Source: a virus
Lineage: Duplodnaviria; Heunggongvirae; Uroviricota; Caudoviricetes
Virus record (IMG/VR): IMGVR_UViG_2690316099_000007
Direction: 5' to 3' (one strand)
DNA: 10,779 nucleotides
Shown here: positions 41-10,779 of the stretch, one piece after another
How the letters are laid out: every line of letters starts with the position of its first letter
How positions within the stretch are numbered: position 1 is the stretch's first letter
The notes under the pieces: generated by a model
What the model saw: only the letters and a program-made list of their open reading frames with translations
Database searches by the model: none
What the model was told of the DNA's origin: nothing
Program-made: the position numbers and the translations under genes

Positions 41-130
41 CAATAACTGATTGATTTATAATATGTTATGCCGCTTCGTTCCACTCTGTGAGATAGGGTG
101 CCTTATCCGGCCTTACCCTGGCAACCGATT

Positions 131-161: not shown

Positions 162-302
162 TTACTGCTTACACTGTAAGAACGCCGCAAACTCCGCTCC
201 CCAGAAGCTCATCCGTATTTCACACAGCGAACCGTGCAACATCCAGATGATGAGGATTGCCGTCACGCAGAACGTGATGGTCGTAAGCGATTTTTGCGAC
301 AT
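162..302 (-). CDS. hok: Hok/Gef-family type I toxin (46 aa small membrane protein)
   Basis: Manual reverse-complement translation: MSQKSLTTITFCVTAILIIWMLHGSLCEIRMSFWGAEFAAFLQCKQ*. ATG at 302-300, TAA at 164-162, AAGGAG Shine-Dalgarno 5-6 nt upstream. Hydrophobic N-terminal helix followed by the Hok-family signature SLCE(I/L)R...E(F/L)AAFL.CK, recalled from HokA/Hok of plasmid R1. Absent from the ORF track because it is under 60 aa. Confidence 0.85.
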   Translation of the reverse strand: MSQKSLTTITFCVTAILIIWMLHGSLCEIRMSFWGAEFAAFLQCKQ

Positions 303-472: not shown

Positions 473-1880
473 TACTCCGGCAATTCTGCCTGTTAATTCT
501 GAGGTAAAGGCAAGCTCATCTGATTGTTTCCCCTGTGTGAAGCTGGCAGATCATGCCACGGGATATCTTCTGAAGAGTGAACGCCGGAGGCGTGTTNNNN
601 NNNNNNNNNNNNNNNNNNNNNNNNNNNNNNNNNNNNNNNNNNNNNNNNNNNNNNNNNNNNNNNNNNNNNNNNNNNNNNNNNNNNNNNNNNNNNNNNNNNN
701 NNNNNNNNNNNNNNNNNNNNNNNNNNNNNNNNNNNNNNNNNNNNNNNNNNNNNNNNNNNNNNNNNNNNNNNNNNNNNNNNNNNNNNNNNNNNNNNNNNNN
801 NNNNNNNNNNNNNNNNNNNNNNNNNNNNNNNNNNNNNNNNNNNNNNNNNNNNNNNNNNNNNNNNNNNNNNNNNNNNNNNNNNNNNNNNNNNNNNNNNNNN
901 NNNNNNNNNNNNNNNNNNNNNNNNNNNNNNNNNNNNNNNNNNNNNNNNNNNNNNNNNNNNNNNNNNNNNNNNNNNNNNNNNNNNNNNNNNNNNNNNNNNN
1001 NNNNNNNNNNNNNNNNNNNNNNNNNNNNNNNNNNNNNNNACTTATAGATTTACTATAGCATTGTATTATTTGNNNNNNNNNNNNNNNNNNNNNNNNNNNN
1101 NNNNNNNNNNNNNNNNNNNNNNNNNNNNNNNNNNNNNNNNNNNNNNNNNNNNNNNNNNNNNNNNNNNNNNNNNNNNNNNNNNNNNNNNNNNNNNNNNNNN
1201 NNNNNNNNNNNNNNNNNNNNNNNNNNNNNNNNNNNNNNNNNNNNNNNNNNNNNNNNNNNNNNNNNNNNNNNNNNNNNNNNNNNNNNNNNNNNNNNNNNNN
1301 NNNNNNNNNNNNNNNNNNNNNNNNNNNNNNNNNNNNNNNNNNNNNNNNNNNNNNNNNNNNNNNNNNNNNNNNNNNNNNNNNNNNNNNNNNNNNNNNNNNN
1401 NNNNNNNNNNNNNNNNNNNNNNNNNNNNNNNNNNNNNNNNNNNNNNNNNNNNNNNNNNNNNNNNNNNNNNNNNNNNNNNNNNNNNNNNNNNNNNNNNNNN
1501 NNNNNNNNNNNNNNNNNNNNNNNNNNNNNNNNNNNNNNNNNNTTGAAATTATACTGGATAGCGGTGTTTCCAAAGCTCCCCCAGCGTAAGGCATTCTNNN
1601 NNNNNNNNNNNNNNNNNNNNNNNNNNNNNNNNNNNNNNNNNNNNNNNNNNNNNNNNNNNNNNNNNNNNNNNNNNNNNNNNNNNNNNNNNNNNNNNNNNNN
1701 NNNNNNNNNNNNNNNNNNNNNNNNNNNNNNNNNNNNNNNNNNNNNNNNNNNNNNNNNNNNNNNNNNNNNNNNNNNNNNNNNNNNNNNNNNNNNNNNNNNN
1801 NNNNNNNNNNNNNNNNNNNNNNNNNNNNNNNNNNNNNNNNNNNNNNNNNNNNNNNNNNNNNNNNNNNNNNNNNNNNNNNN

Positions 1881-2695
1881 ATTTCTTCACACTGCTTTTT
1901 CCAAAGTGGATAATGTTTTTCTTTATAAAGAGAAATATCATCTGCTGATACAGGGAAATACTCCTGTTGACTAAATGACTTGATGATTTTTTCTAGTGAT
2001 TGTGGGGTAGTTTGTTCATTGTCAAAGTTTGTAACCAATGGGAATGCATCCGTTAGTTGACAAAGCAAATTATCAACTTCATATTCAGATAAAGCTGTAT
2101 AATAAGGAAGTACAATATTTAATTGCTCGTCATCGGCTACTTTAATGCTGAAATCGGGCATAGACTGAGTGAATTGCTTCAGNNNNNNNNNNNNNNNNNN
2201 NNNNNNNNNNNNNNNNNNNNNNNNNNNNNNNATTTGTTTATCCTTTTCATCTGGCTCAGCAGGAAGCAACCATGAAGAAGGCACTTTATAGCAGATTATA
2301 TTATGTTTTATTGCTGAAAAACGTGGACCGCTATCATTGGTAATGATTGCCACCTCCGAATCTGGATCGTCAGCGCAATANNNNNNNNNNNNNNNNNNNN
2401 NNNNNNNNNNNNNNNNNNNNNNNNNNNNNNNNNNNNNNNNNNNNNNNNNNNNNNNNNNNNNNNNNNNNNNNNNNNNNNNNNNNNNNNNNNNNNNNNNNNN
2501 NNNNNNNNNNNNNNNNNNNNNNNNNNNNNNNNNNNNNNNNNNNNNNNNNNNNNNNNNNNNNNNNNNNNNNNNNNNNNNNNNNNNNNNNNNNNNNNNNNNN
2601 NNNNNNNNNNNNNNNNNNNNNNNNNNNNNNNNNNNNNNNNNNNNNNNNNNNNNNNGCCTTGTAATAATGATACATACTTCATCACAAGCAGTAAT
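1881..2695 (-). CDS. AT-rich cargo gene, unknown function (visible in three fragments: 2695-2656, 2380-2232, 2182-1881)
   Basis: Seen in sequence: one minus-strand frame is open across all 100 codons of 1881-2182 and all 49 codons of 2232-2380 despite AT-rich composition, while every + frame has stops there. Visible peptides: ...YCADDPDSEVAIITNDSGPRFSAIKHNIICYKVPSSWLLPAEPDEKDKQ... and ...LKQFTQSMPDFSIKVADDEQLNIVLPYYTALSEYEVDNLLCQLTDAFPLVTNFDNEQTTPQSLEKIIKSFSQQEYFPVSADDISLYKEKHYPLWKKQCEE.... No family recognised. True start and stop are masked, and whether the fragments are one gene or more is unknown. Confidence 0.45.
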
Positions 2696-3040
2696 NNNNN
2701 NNNNNNNNNNNNNNNNNNNNNNNNNNNNNNNNNNNNNNNNNNNNNNNNNNNNNNNNNNNNNNNNNNNNNNNNNNNNNNNNNNNNNNNNNNNNNNNNNNNN
2801 NNNNNNNNNNNNNNNNNNNNNNNNNNNNNNNNNNNNNNNNNNNNNNNNNNNNNNNNNNNNNNNNNNNNNNNNNNNNNNNNNNNNNNNNNNNNNNNNNNNN
2901 NNNNNNNNNNNNNNNNNNNNNNNNNNNNNNNNNNNNNNNNNNNNNNNNNNNNNNNNNNNNNNNNNNNNNNNNNNNNNNNNNNNNNNNNNNNNNNNNNNNN
3001 NNNNNNNNNNNNNNNNNNNNNNNNNNNNNNNNNNNNNNNN

Positions 3041-6052: not shown

Positions 6053-6410
6053 ATGAAAGAGACGAAAAACATCGATACCGAAAACACGGTCGTTGCTGAC
6101 ACTGTGAAAGAAACCAGTGAGCGTGGCGTAAAACTTACCCAACCAATTGAGCGAGGCGGCGAAAAAATCACGTATGTGGAGATCACCGGGGCTATTGAGC
6201 AGGCTGGNNNNNNNNNNNNNNNNNNNNNNNNNNNNNNNNNNNNNNNNNNNNNNTGTCGCTGTCTGATGTGCTGAATTTGAAAGCGGAATCCATGTTTACG
6301 CTGCTGTCACGCGTGACATCACCGCGACTGGATGAAGTGACGATCAAAAAAATGGCATCCCGTGACTTTATTCAGTTATGTGTGGTTGCCGTAAATTTTT
6401 TGAGCGGTGC
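6053..6410 (+). CDS. E: Tail assembly chaperone gpE (P2 E family); 3' end masked and frame discontinuous across the 6208-6253 mask
   Basis: ATG at 6053 with AAGGAG Shine-Dalgarno; N-terminus MKETKNIDTENTVVADTVKETSERGVKLTQPIERGGEKITYVEITGAIEQAG. After the 46-nt mask the E-like peptide continues in a different frame (...LSLSDVLNLKAESMFTLLSRVTSPRLDEVTIKKMASRDFIQLCVVAVNFLSG) up to the slippery site. Position between FII and T fits P2 gene order. Confidence 0.7.
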
Positions 6411-6710
6411 NNNNNNNNNNNNNNNNNNNNNNNNNNNNNNNNNNNNNNNNNNNNNNNNNNNNNNNNNNNNNNNNNNNNNNNNNNNNNNNNNNNNNNNNNN
6501 NNNNNNNNNNNNNNNNNNNNNNNNNNNNNNNNNNNNNNNNNNNNNNNNNNNNNNNNNNNNNNNNNNNNNNNNNNNNNNNNNNNNNNNNNNNNNNNNNNNN
6601 NNNNNNNNNNNNNNNNNNNNNNNNNNNNNNNNNNNNNNNNNNNNNNNNNNNNNNNNNNNNNNNNNNNNNTCTTGATATCCGGGTCGCTTTCAGCGCCGTT
6701 GACAGGCTGA
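6053..6710 (+). CDS. E+E' frameshift-extended tail chaperone (-1 slip at 6396-6402, E' frame ends 6710)
   Basis: The -1 frame relative to E is open from the slippery site through the mask to a stop at 6710 (track ORF 6378-6710, C-terminus ...LISGSLSAPLTG), overlapping the start of T as in P2. Most of E' is masked. Confidence 0.45.
6396..6402 (+). promoter_or_regulatory. Programmed -1 ribosomal frameshift slippery heptamer T_TTT_TTG (E to E')
   Basis: Seen in sequence: TTTTTTG lies in X_XXY_YYZ register in the E reading frame (AAT TTT TTG). The -1 frame from here (FFERC...) stays open to a stop at 6708-6710. The P2 E/E' frameshift in the FETUD operon uses the same heptamer (established knowledge). 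Confidence 0.6.
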
Positions 6711-9490
6711 CCCGGCCTGCCGAAAACGCCCGCCGCCTGATGGGGCAGTTTGGTGACTCCATCCAGCGAACGCAGGGGGCGATCAAAAATCTCGAGCGTC
6801 AGGCGCGTTCATTTGAGCGCGCCCGTGACGCTGTCAGTAAAGCGGATGCGGGCATCGTGAAAGCACGACGCCAGCTTAACGCCCTTAATCAGTTACAACG
6901 CACGGGTACAGTGCTCAGCGAAAAACAACAAAAGCTGATGCAGCAGTTAAGCACCCGGCTTGAACGCCTGAATGAATCGCGCACACGGGAAATTCAGAAA
7001 ATGCGGGAACTTGGCGGAGAGCTGAAACGCCACGGCATTTCCCTGACAGGCAGCGATAACACCATCCAGCAGGCCATCAGACGCACCGGACAATACAACA
7101 ACCAGCTTGAACGCGAACGGCGGGCGCTTGCGCGTGTAACGCAGGCGCGTGAGCGGTATTCACGCGCGCAGGAAACAGCGGGAAAACTGAAAACAGGTGG
7201 TGCGCTGGCAACAGGTGCGGCGGCAGCGGGCGGCTATGCTGCCGGGCGTTTTTTGCAGCCCGCTATCGGGTTCGGGAAAGAGATGTCCCGTGTTCAGGCA
7301 CTGACGCGAATCGATAAAAACAGCCCGCAGTTTAAGGCGCTGCGTGAGCAGGCGTTAAAACTTGGCTCTGAAACGCAGTTCACCGCAGGCGATGCCGCCA
7401 GTGGACAGGCATTTCTTGCAATGGCTGGTTTCACACCGCAGGCCATTCAGGCTGCGCTTCCCGGCGTGCTGAGCATGGCAACGGCTGGCGGTATGGACCT
7501 CGGCGAGACGGCGGATATTGGTTCCAATATCCTGACGCAGTTCGGCCTCTCTGCTGACCAGATGGACCGGGTCGGTGACACACTTACCGCAGCGTTTACC
7601 CGTACCAACACTGACCTTCGCGCACTGGGCGAAACCATGAAATATGCAGGTCCGGTGGCGGGTAAGCTGGGAATATCGCTGGAGCAGGCCGCAGCGATGG
7701 CGGGCGTGCTGGCGAAGATGGGTATCAGGGGGAGTGATGCAGGTACAGCGTTGCGTAAAAGCCTGGCCAATCTGTCATCACCGCCAAAGGCAGCGGCAGA
7801 AGCACTGAAAGAGCTGGGGGTGTCAGTTGCTGACGCCAAAGGCAAAATGCGCCCGATGGAGAATGTGCTGGCCGATCTCTATAAAGCCACCCGCAAATAC
7901 GGGGAGGTTGACCGGGTATCGTTCTTTAAGGACATTGCCGGAGAAGAGGCTTTCACATCATTTATGGGCCTCGTTGATGCGGCAGGTGACGGCTTCTTAG
8001 CCAAACTGAGAAAAGAACTTGAAGGCGCGCGCGGTGAGGCAGAACGCACGGCAAAGGTTATGGCCAATAACCTTGATGGCAACCTGAAATCACTCGGCAG
8101 TGCATGGGAAGGTCTGCGTATTCGCATCAGTGATCTGGTTGACGGTCCGCTGCGTTCTGTCACGCAGTGGCTCACGCGGGTTGTCTCAAAGGTGACGGCG
8201 CTGGCGCAGGCCCACCCGGCACTGACGCGCCAGTTACTGATAGCGGGAGGCGCACTGCTGGCGACAACAGCAACGGTTGGTTCGTTGTCTCTGGTTATTG
8301 GGGTGCTTCACGGGAAGCTGGCTACGTTGCGTCTCGGTTTTTCTCTCCTGACCGAATCAATGAATGTTGTCAGGGTTCTGCCTGCATTATGGGGAATGGT
8401 GACGGGTTCCGTTTCTTTACTTGGTGGCGCTATCGGGGCGCTGTTCAGTCCGGTTAGTCTTATCGTGGCTGCGCTTGCCGGAGCTGCCGTTCTTATCTGG
8501 AAATACTGGGATCCCATCAGGGCATTTTTTGCCGGGGTGTTCAGCGGGATTATGGAAAGGCTGACCCCGTTGCGCGAAACCTTTGAACGGTTTGGCCCTG
8601 TTTTTGATGTCGTGCGCGATGGGATTATTCAGGTCTTTAACTGGTTTAAATCGCTGCTGTCACCGATGGAGTCCAGCAAGGAAACGCTGGATAAATGTGC
8701 CAGTGCTGGCGAGATATTCGGTAACGTTCTTGGCGGTGCGTTACAACTTGTTCTGACACCTGCAAAAATGCTACTGGATACGCTGGCGTGGATACTTGAA
8801 AAACTTGGCGTCCTTCCGGATGAAGCGGAAAGGGCGCGCAAGAAAATCGAAGACGCACAGCGTGCGGCCATTCTTCAGGACAAGGTTGCCTTGCTTCAGG
8901 GGAACCTGGCGAAAATCAATCCGCCGAAGCCTGTGGAAAATGGCAATGGCACCGGAGGTGATAAACCCAAAGACAACAAACCGCTCACAGACAGCAATAC
9001 CGGGACGCTACGCAGACTCAGCAAAATTGCTGATAACACAGGTAAGCTGGTTGATGAGACGAAAAAACGCATTGGCCCCGGCGATATTGTCTTTAAGAAC
9101 CTGCCCCGCGCACTTGCTGTTCGTGGGGAGTGGCAGGAGCGGAAGATTGCGCAGGTCAGTAAGCCTGCCCCCGCAATTAATATCACACCCGTGGTCCCGG
9201 CTCCGCTGCCTCCGGCGCTGGTCCCTGTTGTTGCGGCCAGCTCCCGCCCGGTGGCGNNNNNNNNNNNNNNNNNNGCGGAGGCCATACGCTCTCCAGTGGC
9301 ATCAGTTCCTGTAACTTCCCGTAACCGGGAGCCTGTTGCCTCCGGATTTGGTGGTGAAATTCATGTTCATCTGCATAACGTTGTTACGCAGAATCCCCGC
9401 GAACTGGCGAAACTGGTCGGTGAAATGGTCAGGGCAGAAATGGAACGGCGCGCCCGTGCCGGGCGTGGCAGTTTTTACGATAAAGATTGA
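6407..9490 (+). CDS. T: Tail tape measure protein (P2 gpT family); true start lies inside the mask 6411-6669
   Basis: Continuous frame from 6671 to TGA at 9488-9490, about 940 visible codons. Coiled-coil-like N-region (QLNALNQLQRTG..., ERERRALARV), a glycine/alanine-rich hydrophobic segment (LLIAGGALLATTATVGSLSLVIGVL...AALAGAAVLIWKYW) typical of tape measure proteins, and gene order E-T-U. Frame is maintained across the 18-nt mask at 9257-9274. Confidence 0.9.
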   Translation: MXXXXXXXXXXXXXXXXXXXXXXXXXXXXXXXXXXXXXXXXXXXXXXXXXXXXXXXXXXXXXXXXXXXXXXXXXXXXXXXXXXXXXXXLDIRVAFSAVDRLTRPAENARRLMGQFGDSIQRTQGAIKNLERQARSFERARDAVSKADAGIVKARRQLNALNQLQRTGTVLSEKQQKLMQQLSTRLERLNESRTREIQKMRELGGELKRHGISLTGSDNTIQQAIRRTGQYNNQLERERRALARVTQARERYSRAQETAGKLKTGGALATGAAAAGGYAAGRFLQPAIGFGKEMSRVQALTRIDKNSPQFKALREQALKLGSETQFTAGDAASGQAFLAMAGFTPQAIQAALPGVLSMATAGGMDLGETADIGSNILTQFGLSADQMDRVGDTLTAAFTRTNTDLRALGETMKYAGPVAGKLGISLEQAAAMAGVLAKMGIRGSDAGTALRKSLANLSSPPKAAAEALKELGVSVADAKGKMRPMENVLADLYKATRKYGEVDRVSFFKDIAGEEAFTSFMGLVDAAGDGFLAKLRKELEGARGEAERTAKVMANNLDGNLKSLGSAWEGLRIRISDLVDGPLRSVTQWLTRVVSKVTALAQAHPALTRQLLIAGGALLATTATVGSLSLVIGVLHGKLATLRLGFSLLTESMNVVRVLPALWGMVTGSVSLLGGAIGALFSPVSLIVAALAGAAVLIWKYWDPIRAFFAGVFSGIMERLTPLRETFERFGPVFDVVRDGIIQVFNWFKSLLSPMESSKETLDKCASAGEIFGNVLGGALQLVLTPAKMLLDTLAWILEKLGVLPDEAERARKKIEDAQRAAILQDKVALLQGNLAKINPPKPVENGNGTGGDKPKDNKPLTDSNTGTLRRLSKIADNTGKLVDETKKRIGPGDIVFKNLPRALAVRGEWQERKIAQVSKPAPAINITPVVPAPLPPALVPVVAASSRPVAXXXXXXAEAIRSPVASVPVTSRNREPVASGFGGEIHVHLHNVVTQNPRELAKLVGEMVRAEMERRARAGRGSFYDKD

Positions 9491-10002: not shown

Positions 10003-10037
10003 AACCGCTAATGGTCAGATTAGCGGTTATTTTGTTT
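10003..10037. terminator. Bidirectional rho-independent terminator between the convergent U and invertase genes
   Basis: Seen in sequence: perfect stem ACCGCTAAT (10004-10012) / ATTAGCGGT (10019-10027), loop GGTCAG, flanked by an A-rich run upstream and TATTTTGTTT downstream. The invertase stop codon (10029-10027) lies in the stem. Confidence 0.6.
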
Positions 10038-10683
10038 CCTGACTCTTCTCTATTGTTCCGATTGATTCTCCTGCGGGGTGGTAACGATAAATCGTCGATA
10101 TACCAATGCCGTAAATTATTGCCAGTTGTTTTCTGTCGTGCCCGTTTTTGATCAGCCTTGCTATTTGCTCATGCTGTTCTTTTGTCAGCTTCGGTCGACG
10201 TCCNNNNNNNNNNNNNNNNNNNNNNNNNNNNNNNNNNNNNNNNNNNNNNNNNNNNNNNNNNNNNNNNNNNNNNNNNNNNNNNNNNNNNNNNNNNNNNNNN
10301 NNNNNNNNNNNNNNNNNNNNNNNNNNNNNNNNNNNNNNNNNNNNNNNNNNNNNNNNNNNNNNNNNNNNNNNNNNNNNNNNNNNNNNNNNNNNNNNNNNNN
10401 NNNNNNNNNNNNNNNNNNNNNNNNNNNNNNNNNNNNNNNNNNNNNNNNNNNNNNNNNNNNNNNNNNNNNNNNNNNNNNNNNNNNNNNNNNNNNNNNNNNN
10501 NNNNNNNNNNNNNNNNNNNNNNNNNNNNNNNNNNNNNNNNNNNNNNNNNNNNNNNNNNNNNNNNNNNNNNNNNNNNNNNNNNNNNNNNNNNNNNNNNNNN
10601 NNNNNNNNNNNNNNNNNNNNNNNNNNNNNNNNNNNNNNNGTATTCTGGTCATTTGTTGATACCCTTACATAGCCAATCAGCAC
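10027..10683 (-). CDS. Serine DNA invertase, Gin/Pin/Cin/Hin family (catalytic core masked)
   Basis: N-terminus from a GTG start at 10683 reads (M)LIGYVRVSTNDQN, the Gin/Pin N-terminal signature with the catalytic Ser in VRVS. C-terminal HTH region GRRPKLTKEQHEQIARLIKNGHDRKQLAIIYGIGISTIYRYHPA closely matches the Hin/Pin DNA-binding domain as recalled. GGGAGA Shine-Dalgarno 6 nt upstream. Middle 436 nt masked but frame is conserved across it. Confidence 0.9.
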   Translation of the reverse strand: MLIGYVRVSTNDQNXXXXXXXXXXXXXXXXXXXXXXXXXXXXXXXXXXXXXXXXXXXXXXXXXXXXXXXXXXXXXXXXXXXXXXXXXXXXXXXXXXXXXXXXXXXXXXXXXXXXXXXXXXXXXXXXXXXXXXXXXXXXXXXXXXXXXXXXXXXXXXXXXXGRRPKLTKEQHEQIARLIKNGHDRKQLAIIYGIGISTIYRYHPAGESIGTIEKSQETK

Positions 10684-10737
10684 GCTGAATCTCCCGTCCA
10701 AAAGCGCAAATCATGCCATGCAGGCCGGAAACGGCCA

Positions 10738-10764
10738 TTATCTAAAACTGAGGTAGCCTGAGTT
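10738..10764. promoter_or_regulatory. Candidate invertase crossover site or promoter-operator (gix/hix-like half-site plus imperfect palindrome), truncated by window end
   Basis: Seen in sequence: TTATCTAAAAC (10738-10748) matches 10 of 11 positions of the recalled gix/hix half-site TTATC(C/A)AAAAC and lies about 55 bp upstream of the invertase start, where gixR sits relative to gin in Mu. It overlaps an imperfect dyad AAACTGAGG-TAG-CCTGAGTTT (10744-10764). The second half of a canonical 26-bp site is not clearly present. Confidence 0.25.
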
Positions 10765-10779
10765 TAACGGACACTCCTT

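Follow-up and report, generated by a model that had tools for sequence, protein, structure and literature searches.

The stretch of DNA analyzed here, referred to as the window, comprises 10,779 nt of a virus record and is identified by its open reading frames (ORFs) and by searches of databases as the tail module of a P2-like (P88/Xuanwuvirus-type) prophage that is located beside ihfA-pheT in a Shigella sonnei-type chromosome. The left part of the window contains hok, ogr, a PIN_4 cargo gene and then gpD on the minus strand, and the right part contains the genes for sheath, tube, E, E', tape measure and gpU on the plus strand, with a convergent invertase gene at the far end. Between positions 9400 and 10748 the DNA has an identity of 97.8% with phage P88 (Xuanwuvirus, Peduoviridae), whereas the identity with E. 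coli prophages reaches up to 100%; up to 10 places that resemble the window region are encountered per E. coli genome. The convergent gpU and invertase genes are separated by a hairpin at 10003-10028 with a perfect 10-bp stem and T-runs on either strand, which looks like a bidirectional terminator.

Via the gpU protein, two complete chromosomes were found that share the gene order of the window as well as the insertion junction at its right edge, i.e., L005 (CP032523.1) and L007 (CP029794.1), the latter being Shigella sonnei 4303 (PMC6201595). Positions 1-90 of the window show 1-2 base differences with L005 and L007, and the window is devoid of 137 nt that are present between ihfA and hok (L005 876-1012, corresponding to window positions 85-90). 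The source of the window is thus a third, slightly different genome, implying that the insertion is present in at least three assemblies. Parts of the window are masked with N, and relatives that match 100% on both sides of a mask contain less sequence than the mask suggests: 367 nt rather than 436 at 10204-10639, 14 nt rather than 46 at 6208-6253, and 198 nt rather than 259 at 6411-6669. Because of these oversized masks, ORFs that span them appear too long, and coordinates across them do not represent the genome.

Besides the tail genes, the left part of the window encodes a hok/gef-like toxin of 46 aa (approximately 162-302, minus strand; L005 1090-1230) at the prophage end that adjoins ihfA, a gene that is also annotated in P88. 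A 500-aa PIN_4-domain protein is encoded between ogr and gpD (approximately 1080-2780, minus strand, mostly masked; L005 1925-3427). At the same position L012 encodes a 381-aa ORF without Pfam match, and nothing is found in L006 and L009; this interval looks like a variable cargo hotspot that possibly serves in defence. Analysis with PADLOC gave no match for either the PIN_4 cargo protein or the 381-aa cargo of L012.

The invertase gene, a member of the Gin family of serine DNA invertases, is located at 10027-10683 on the minus strand (stop codon included) and initiates at the GTG codon at 10683-10681, which is preceded by GGGAG and is the start codon assigned in RefSeq/GenBank relatives. The ORF as listed spans 10027-10701 on the minus strand, begins at the TTG at 10701, and has a length of 224 aa, which is inflated by the 69 nt by which the 436-N mask exceeds the 367 nt of the relatives. 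Corrected on basis of these relatives, the gene comprises 588 nt and encodes 195 aa. The mask (10204-10639) covers the middle 62% of the gene. Outside it, the N-terminus VLIGYVRVSTNDQN, which includes Ser9, and the C-terminus of 58 aa agree at every residue with the corresponding parts of the 195-aa invertase of L001, L005, L007, and L011, and the visible C-terminus matches Pfam HTH_7 (E=2.4e-14). The full 195-aa protein of the 100%-matching relatives contains a Resolvase domain (E=1e-50) in addition to HTH_7, matches the Gin structures 4m6f and 3uj3 in the PDB with E-values of about 1e-100, and is 86% identical to Gin of phage D108. A preliminary description of this DNA had proposed a Gin/Pin-family invertase with an N-terminus and C-terminal helix-turn-helix that are intact outside the mask, and both proposals are borne out by these comparisons; the Resolvase domain with Ser9, the HTH_7 domain, and a length of about 190 aa (full length read in the relatives) are the features shared by the Gin, Hin, Cin, and Pin invertases.

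Gin uses S9 as its catalytic residue, and the substitution M114V renders Gin independent of Fis (PMC3575834); position 114 in the invertase of the relatives is the wild-type methionine. The P88 invertase differs at 3 of the 195 residues. The invertase of the source genome appears intact, and its masked middle part is probably intact as well, given the unmasked catalytic serine and the full-length protein of the 100%-matching relatives. At the nucleotide level, the gene matches D108 gin at 95-100% identity over nt 1-350, and identity drops to about 50% after nt 360, while the C-terminal domain scores better with the Hin DNA-binding domain (1HCR, E=8e-14) than with Gin (E=3e-10). The gene is therefore a mosaic that combines a Gin-type catalytic part with a Hin-like helix-turn-helix. 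In phage Mu, the Fis-dependent recombinational enhancer is located in cis, within the 5' part of gin.

The start codon of the invertase gene is preceded by a 54-nt leader (10684-10737, minus strand) that contains the GGGAG ribosome-binding site and is identical to the leader of intact relatives and about 90% identical to that of D108. Directly beyond it, 54 nt upstream of the start codon, lies the sequence TTATCTAAAAC (10738-10748), which constitutes the first 11 bp of a 26-bp gix-type crossover site and is the remnant of the invertase-proximal site. As a bare motif this sequence is not significant: at a maximum of 1 mismatch it has 2 matches versus 0.39 expected, and 14 out of 200 shuffled sequences reach 2 matches. 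It is homology that identifies it as a genuine half-site, as each of its bases aligns with the left half of the gixR site of D108 and with that of the intact sites in P88-like prophages. The aligned position in L001, L011, and phage P88 reads TTATCTAAAACCTCGGTTTACAGGAA, a full 26-bp site that is identical at 26 of 26 positions to D108 gixR, annotated as the right inverted repeat of D108. The gix/hix-like half-site that had been noticed about 55 bp upstream of the gene is thereby confirmed, and so is its relationship to gix. The imperfect palindrome that it overlaps, which had been noticed along with it, fared differently. By direct reading, 8 of the 9 positions in its arms, AAACTGAGG (10745-10753) and CCTGAGTTT (10757-10765), are complementary, yet only 4 of its bases derive from the gix half-site and the remainder belongs to an IS600 terminal repeat, and an inverted-repeat search of 10640-10779 detected none. 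The two arms adjoin by chance and do not form the dyad of a crossover site.

None of the database matches extends past position 10748 of the window. Beyond this position the window continues with TGAGGTAGCCTGAGTTTAACGGACACTCCTT, where the intact relatives have CTCGGTTTACAGGAA. This 31-nt tail was found in up to 43 copies per E. coli genome, at unrelated chromosomal and plasmid loci and directly upstream of coding sequences that are annotated as 'IS3-like element IS600 family transposase', which identifies it as the left terminal repeat of IS600 (IS3 family; 10749-10779, plus strand). The transposase reads rightwards, and the window ends inside the element. The alternative possibility that the tail represents the flipped orientation of the invertible segment was rejected, because the tail is absent from L001 and L002. 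It could also be proposed that the invertase is intact and active, that the crossover site is intact from 10738 onwards, and that the invertible segment lies immediately right of the window; the half-site and the invertase are genuine, and intact relatives have exactly such an arrangement. This is extremely improbable, as position 10748 is followed by TGAGGTAGCCTGAG, the IS600 end of many unrelated loci, rather than by CTCGGTTTACAGGAA, and no 26-bp gix-like site was found in the window at a maximum of 7 mismatches.

The identical left junction in L005 and L007 provides access to the other side of the insertion. In L005 the junction is followed by a full IS600 of 1264 bp that is 99.9% identical to an annotated copy, and in L007 by an internally deleted IS600 of 511 bp (L007 11184-11694) that has lost approximately 750 bp. 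At the right end of the element in both genomes, ...GTACACCTCA is followed by AAC and subsequently by CTCGGTTTACAGGAAACGG, which begins with CTCGGTTTACAGGAA and represents the missing part of the site. From these junctions, the AAC at 10746-10748 of the window can be recognized as the left copy of the 3-bp target-site duplication. The element has the TG...CA terminal inverted repeats, the 3-bp duplication, and the orfAB transposase of IS600 (full element read in L005 and L007), with HTH_Tnp_1 and rve as transposase domains, and RefSeq annotates identical copies as IS600 family transposase with programmed frameshift. In the source genome, the remainder of the element and the DNA beyond it would presumably be organized as in these relatives. 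The junction might also be regarded as an assembly artefact or a minority variant in a population in which most cells retain the uninterrupted site TTATCTAAAACCTCGG, considering that IS-rich Shigella genomes are prone to misassembly and that the window ends inside a repeat. The identical left junction in two independently assembled complete chromosomes, and the matching right junctions with a clean 3-bp duplication, which is the signature of true transposition, make this very improbable.

Neither the 5,426 complete E. coli genomes that were searched nor any IMG/VR contig contained the split junction, versus 67 IMG/VR contigs with the intact site; a contig collection with one genome per species contained neither split junctions nor intact sites and is uninformative in this respect. 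No substitute for the proximal site was found at a maximum of 7 mismatches within 20 kb of L005 and L007. In these genomes the distal site is whole and the proximal site is split, and in the window 11 bp of the proximal site are left beside the gene, with IS600 next to it. The intact relatives L001, L002, and L011 have two complete inverted 26-bp sites, the inverted partner TTCCTGTAAACCGAGGTATTCGATAA being located about 3.05 kb away from the proximal site and approximately 1 kb into the tail-fibre gene.

The segment that these sites delimit in the intact loci carries an alternative fibre C-terminus without promoter and, in addition, two genes for tail-fibre assembly. The same cassettes are encountered right of the IS in L005 and L007, followed by the intact distal site: a promoterless alternative C-terminus of 328 aa, two Caudo_TAP genes, and a tail fibre of 656 aa with Phage_tail_fib and Phage_fiber_2 domains, of which the gene contains the distal site about 1 kb from its start. 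The hallmarks of a tail-fibre host-range switch, i.e., alternative C-termini, chaperones, and a constant N-terminal part outside the segment, are thus present in L005 and L007, in the region outside the window. An invertible segment to the right of 10779 had been predicted from the window, and in genomes with the same junction it does lie on that side, complete with alternative cassettes and an inverted partner site, in the arrangement that switches tail-fibre C-termini. It does not lie just beyond the window, as had been assumed, because IS600 intervenes and splits the site. Nothing suggests that phase-variable cargo other than tail fibres is involved, a possibility that had also been raised.

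Inversion of the segment has occurred naturally in the intact relatives. The 3.1-kb segments of L001 (E. coli FDAARGOS_943) and L011 are 99.7% identical and point in opposite directions between collinear flanks, and the segment of P88 is flipped relative to that of L011. Using synthetic queries for the two junction forms, full matches were obtained in 227 and 129 complete E. coli genomes, respectively. The IS600-split allele was found in one orientation, that of L011, in the 2 genomes L005 and L007; both belong to a clonal species, and their common orientation is weak evidence for locking. Experiments by others have demonstrated phase-variable inversions in P2-like prophages of E. coli (PMC4272514), and the paper describing P88 does not mention inversion.

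Sister prophages with the same gpU (L006, L009, L010, L012, L013, and L014, about 10520-15900) encode a different invertase of 199 aa. Beside it, 3-6 short cassettes with a Collar domain (PF07484) are found, of which the order and orientation vary between genomes. These arrays are a multi-site, shufflon-like tail-fibre switch, as in a P2-like prophage of EPEC (PMC4272514).

Taken together, the data lead us to propose, with a probability of roughly 0.85, that the locus contains the Gin-type switch of a P2-like prophage with an invertase that appears intact, in which the proximal crossover site was split by IS600 and the segment became frozen. In intact phages, dimers of the invertase would bind the two inverted 26-bp gix-type sites, one located 54 nt upstream of the gene and the other in the tail-fibre gene, in agreement with the binding of one Gin dimer to each gix site (PMC3575834). 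With the help of Fis and the enhancer, these dimers would synapse and flip the 3.1-kb segment, thereby exchanging the tail-fibre C-terminus together with its chaperone and changing the host range. In the lineage of the window, IS600 has jumped into the site nearest to the invertase gene, with bp 11 and bp 12 of the left half-site on either side of the insertion point and with duplication of AAC. The IS now holds the two half-sites apart, at a distance of 1264 bp in L005 and 511 bp in L007, so that a recombinase dimer would be unable to occupy a complete site beside the gene and the segment would remain in one orientation. Such a disruption of the 26-bp site most likely leaves the switch locked. 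The prophage most likely expresses the 656-aa form of the fibre and is in a state of decay, to judge from the organization of its relatives.

Signs of decay are not confined to the junction. In L005, a second, inverted IS600 (14165-15428) shortens a tail-fibre assembly gene, such that its product is reduced from 177 to 137 aa. Both this second element and the internal loss in the IS600 copy of L007 are further signs of prophage decay.

Gin, Cin, Hin, and Pin complement one another, and the orphaned invertase might still be expressed and act in trans on gix/pix-type sites elsewhere in the genome, for instance in the tail-fibre switches of other prophages, or on site B in combination with a distant site, which would explain the retention of an intact gene. 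The protein encoded in the genomes that share the junction is identical to that of intact prophages, and the similar places in E. coli genomes, up to 10 per genome, could offer such sites. The identity of the protein may equally reflect a recent insertion, and no second site is present in the 20 kb. Moreover, IS sequence has taken the place of everything beyond about -66 upstream of the invertase gene, which may have removed promoter elements. The gin promoter of Mu had been described as overlapping gixR; here, scans for a sigma-70-like or consensus promoter upstream of the gene detected none in either the split or the intact form. Activity in trans is therefore considered unlikely, and the locked switch remains the preferred explanation.

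The invertase, its site, and the switch are already known: they correspond to the textbook G segment of Mu, and are annotated in P88, in RefSeq, and in thousands of E. coli prophages. Like the Gin/gix system of Mu and D108, the locus encodes an almost identical catalytic domain and has, in intact relatives, the D108 gixR sequence as its site. The layout also resembles that of the G segment, with the invertase, a site, the Sv'-U' and U-Sv cassettes, and a second site inside the tail-fibre gene. In contrast to Mu and D108, the phage is P2-like rather than Mu-like, its C-terminal DNA-binding domain is another allele that is closer to Hin (1HCR), and the equivalent of gixR in the window is split by IS600. 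P88 and the P2-like prophages of E. coli and Citrobacter with an annotated invertase share the order D, FI, FII, E, E', T, U, invertase, and tail-fibre cassettes, but the crossover site is intact in P88 and the E. coli prophages, unlike in the window. As to IS600, an element that is abundant in Shigella, the 31-nt end is identical, L005 contains the full 1264-bp copy, and the duplication is the usual 3 bp. Nothing about the element is unusual, and its target alone is noteworthy, being the core of a site-specific recombination site.

Left flanks that end in AAAAC were encountered in 3 of 5 IS600 copies, i.e., in the gix site, in an IS1203 terminal repeat, and inside another IS600; the loci examined included L003 2006, L004 2007, and L005 11184 and 15428, with the target duplications AAC, AAC, and CAC, and the sample of 5 is too small for any conclusion on target preference. 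A preference of IS600 for the ...AAAAC of gix-type cores, or, as another speculative option, the maintenance of the orphan but intact invertase for inversions at other Shigella sites, is quite improbable. If the AAAAC preference were true, insertion of IS3-family elements would be a recurrent way of freezing the host-range switches of phages.

The locus most likely represents a known system that was inactivated locally, through IS-driven prophage decay that is ordinary for Shigella, and the only local peculiarity is the presence of IS600 in the crossover core. Its importance reaches little beyond annotation. What the window shows at its edge is a genuine gix half-site with an IS end behind it, and it would be wrong to call the locus actively phase-variable; the position of IS600 at this edge also explains why assemblies are inclined to break at such a point. 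For the biology of these prophages, the locus provides a clean example of how IS-driven decay in Shigella freezes a host-range switch.
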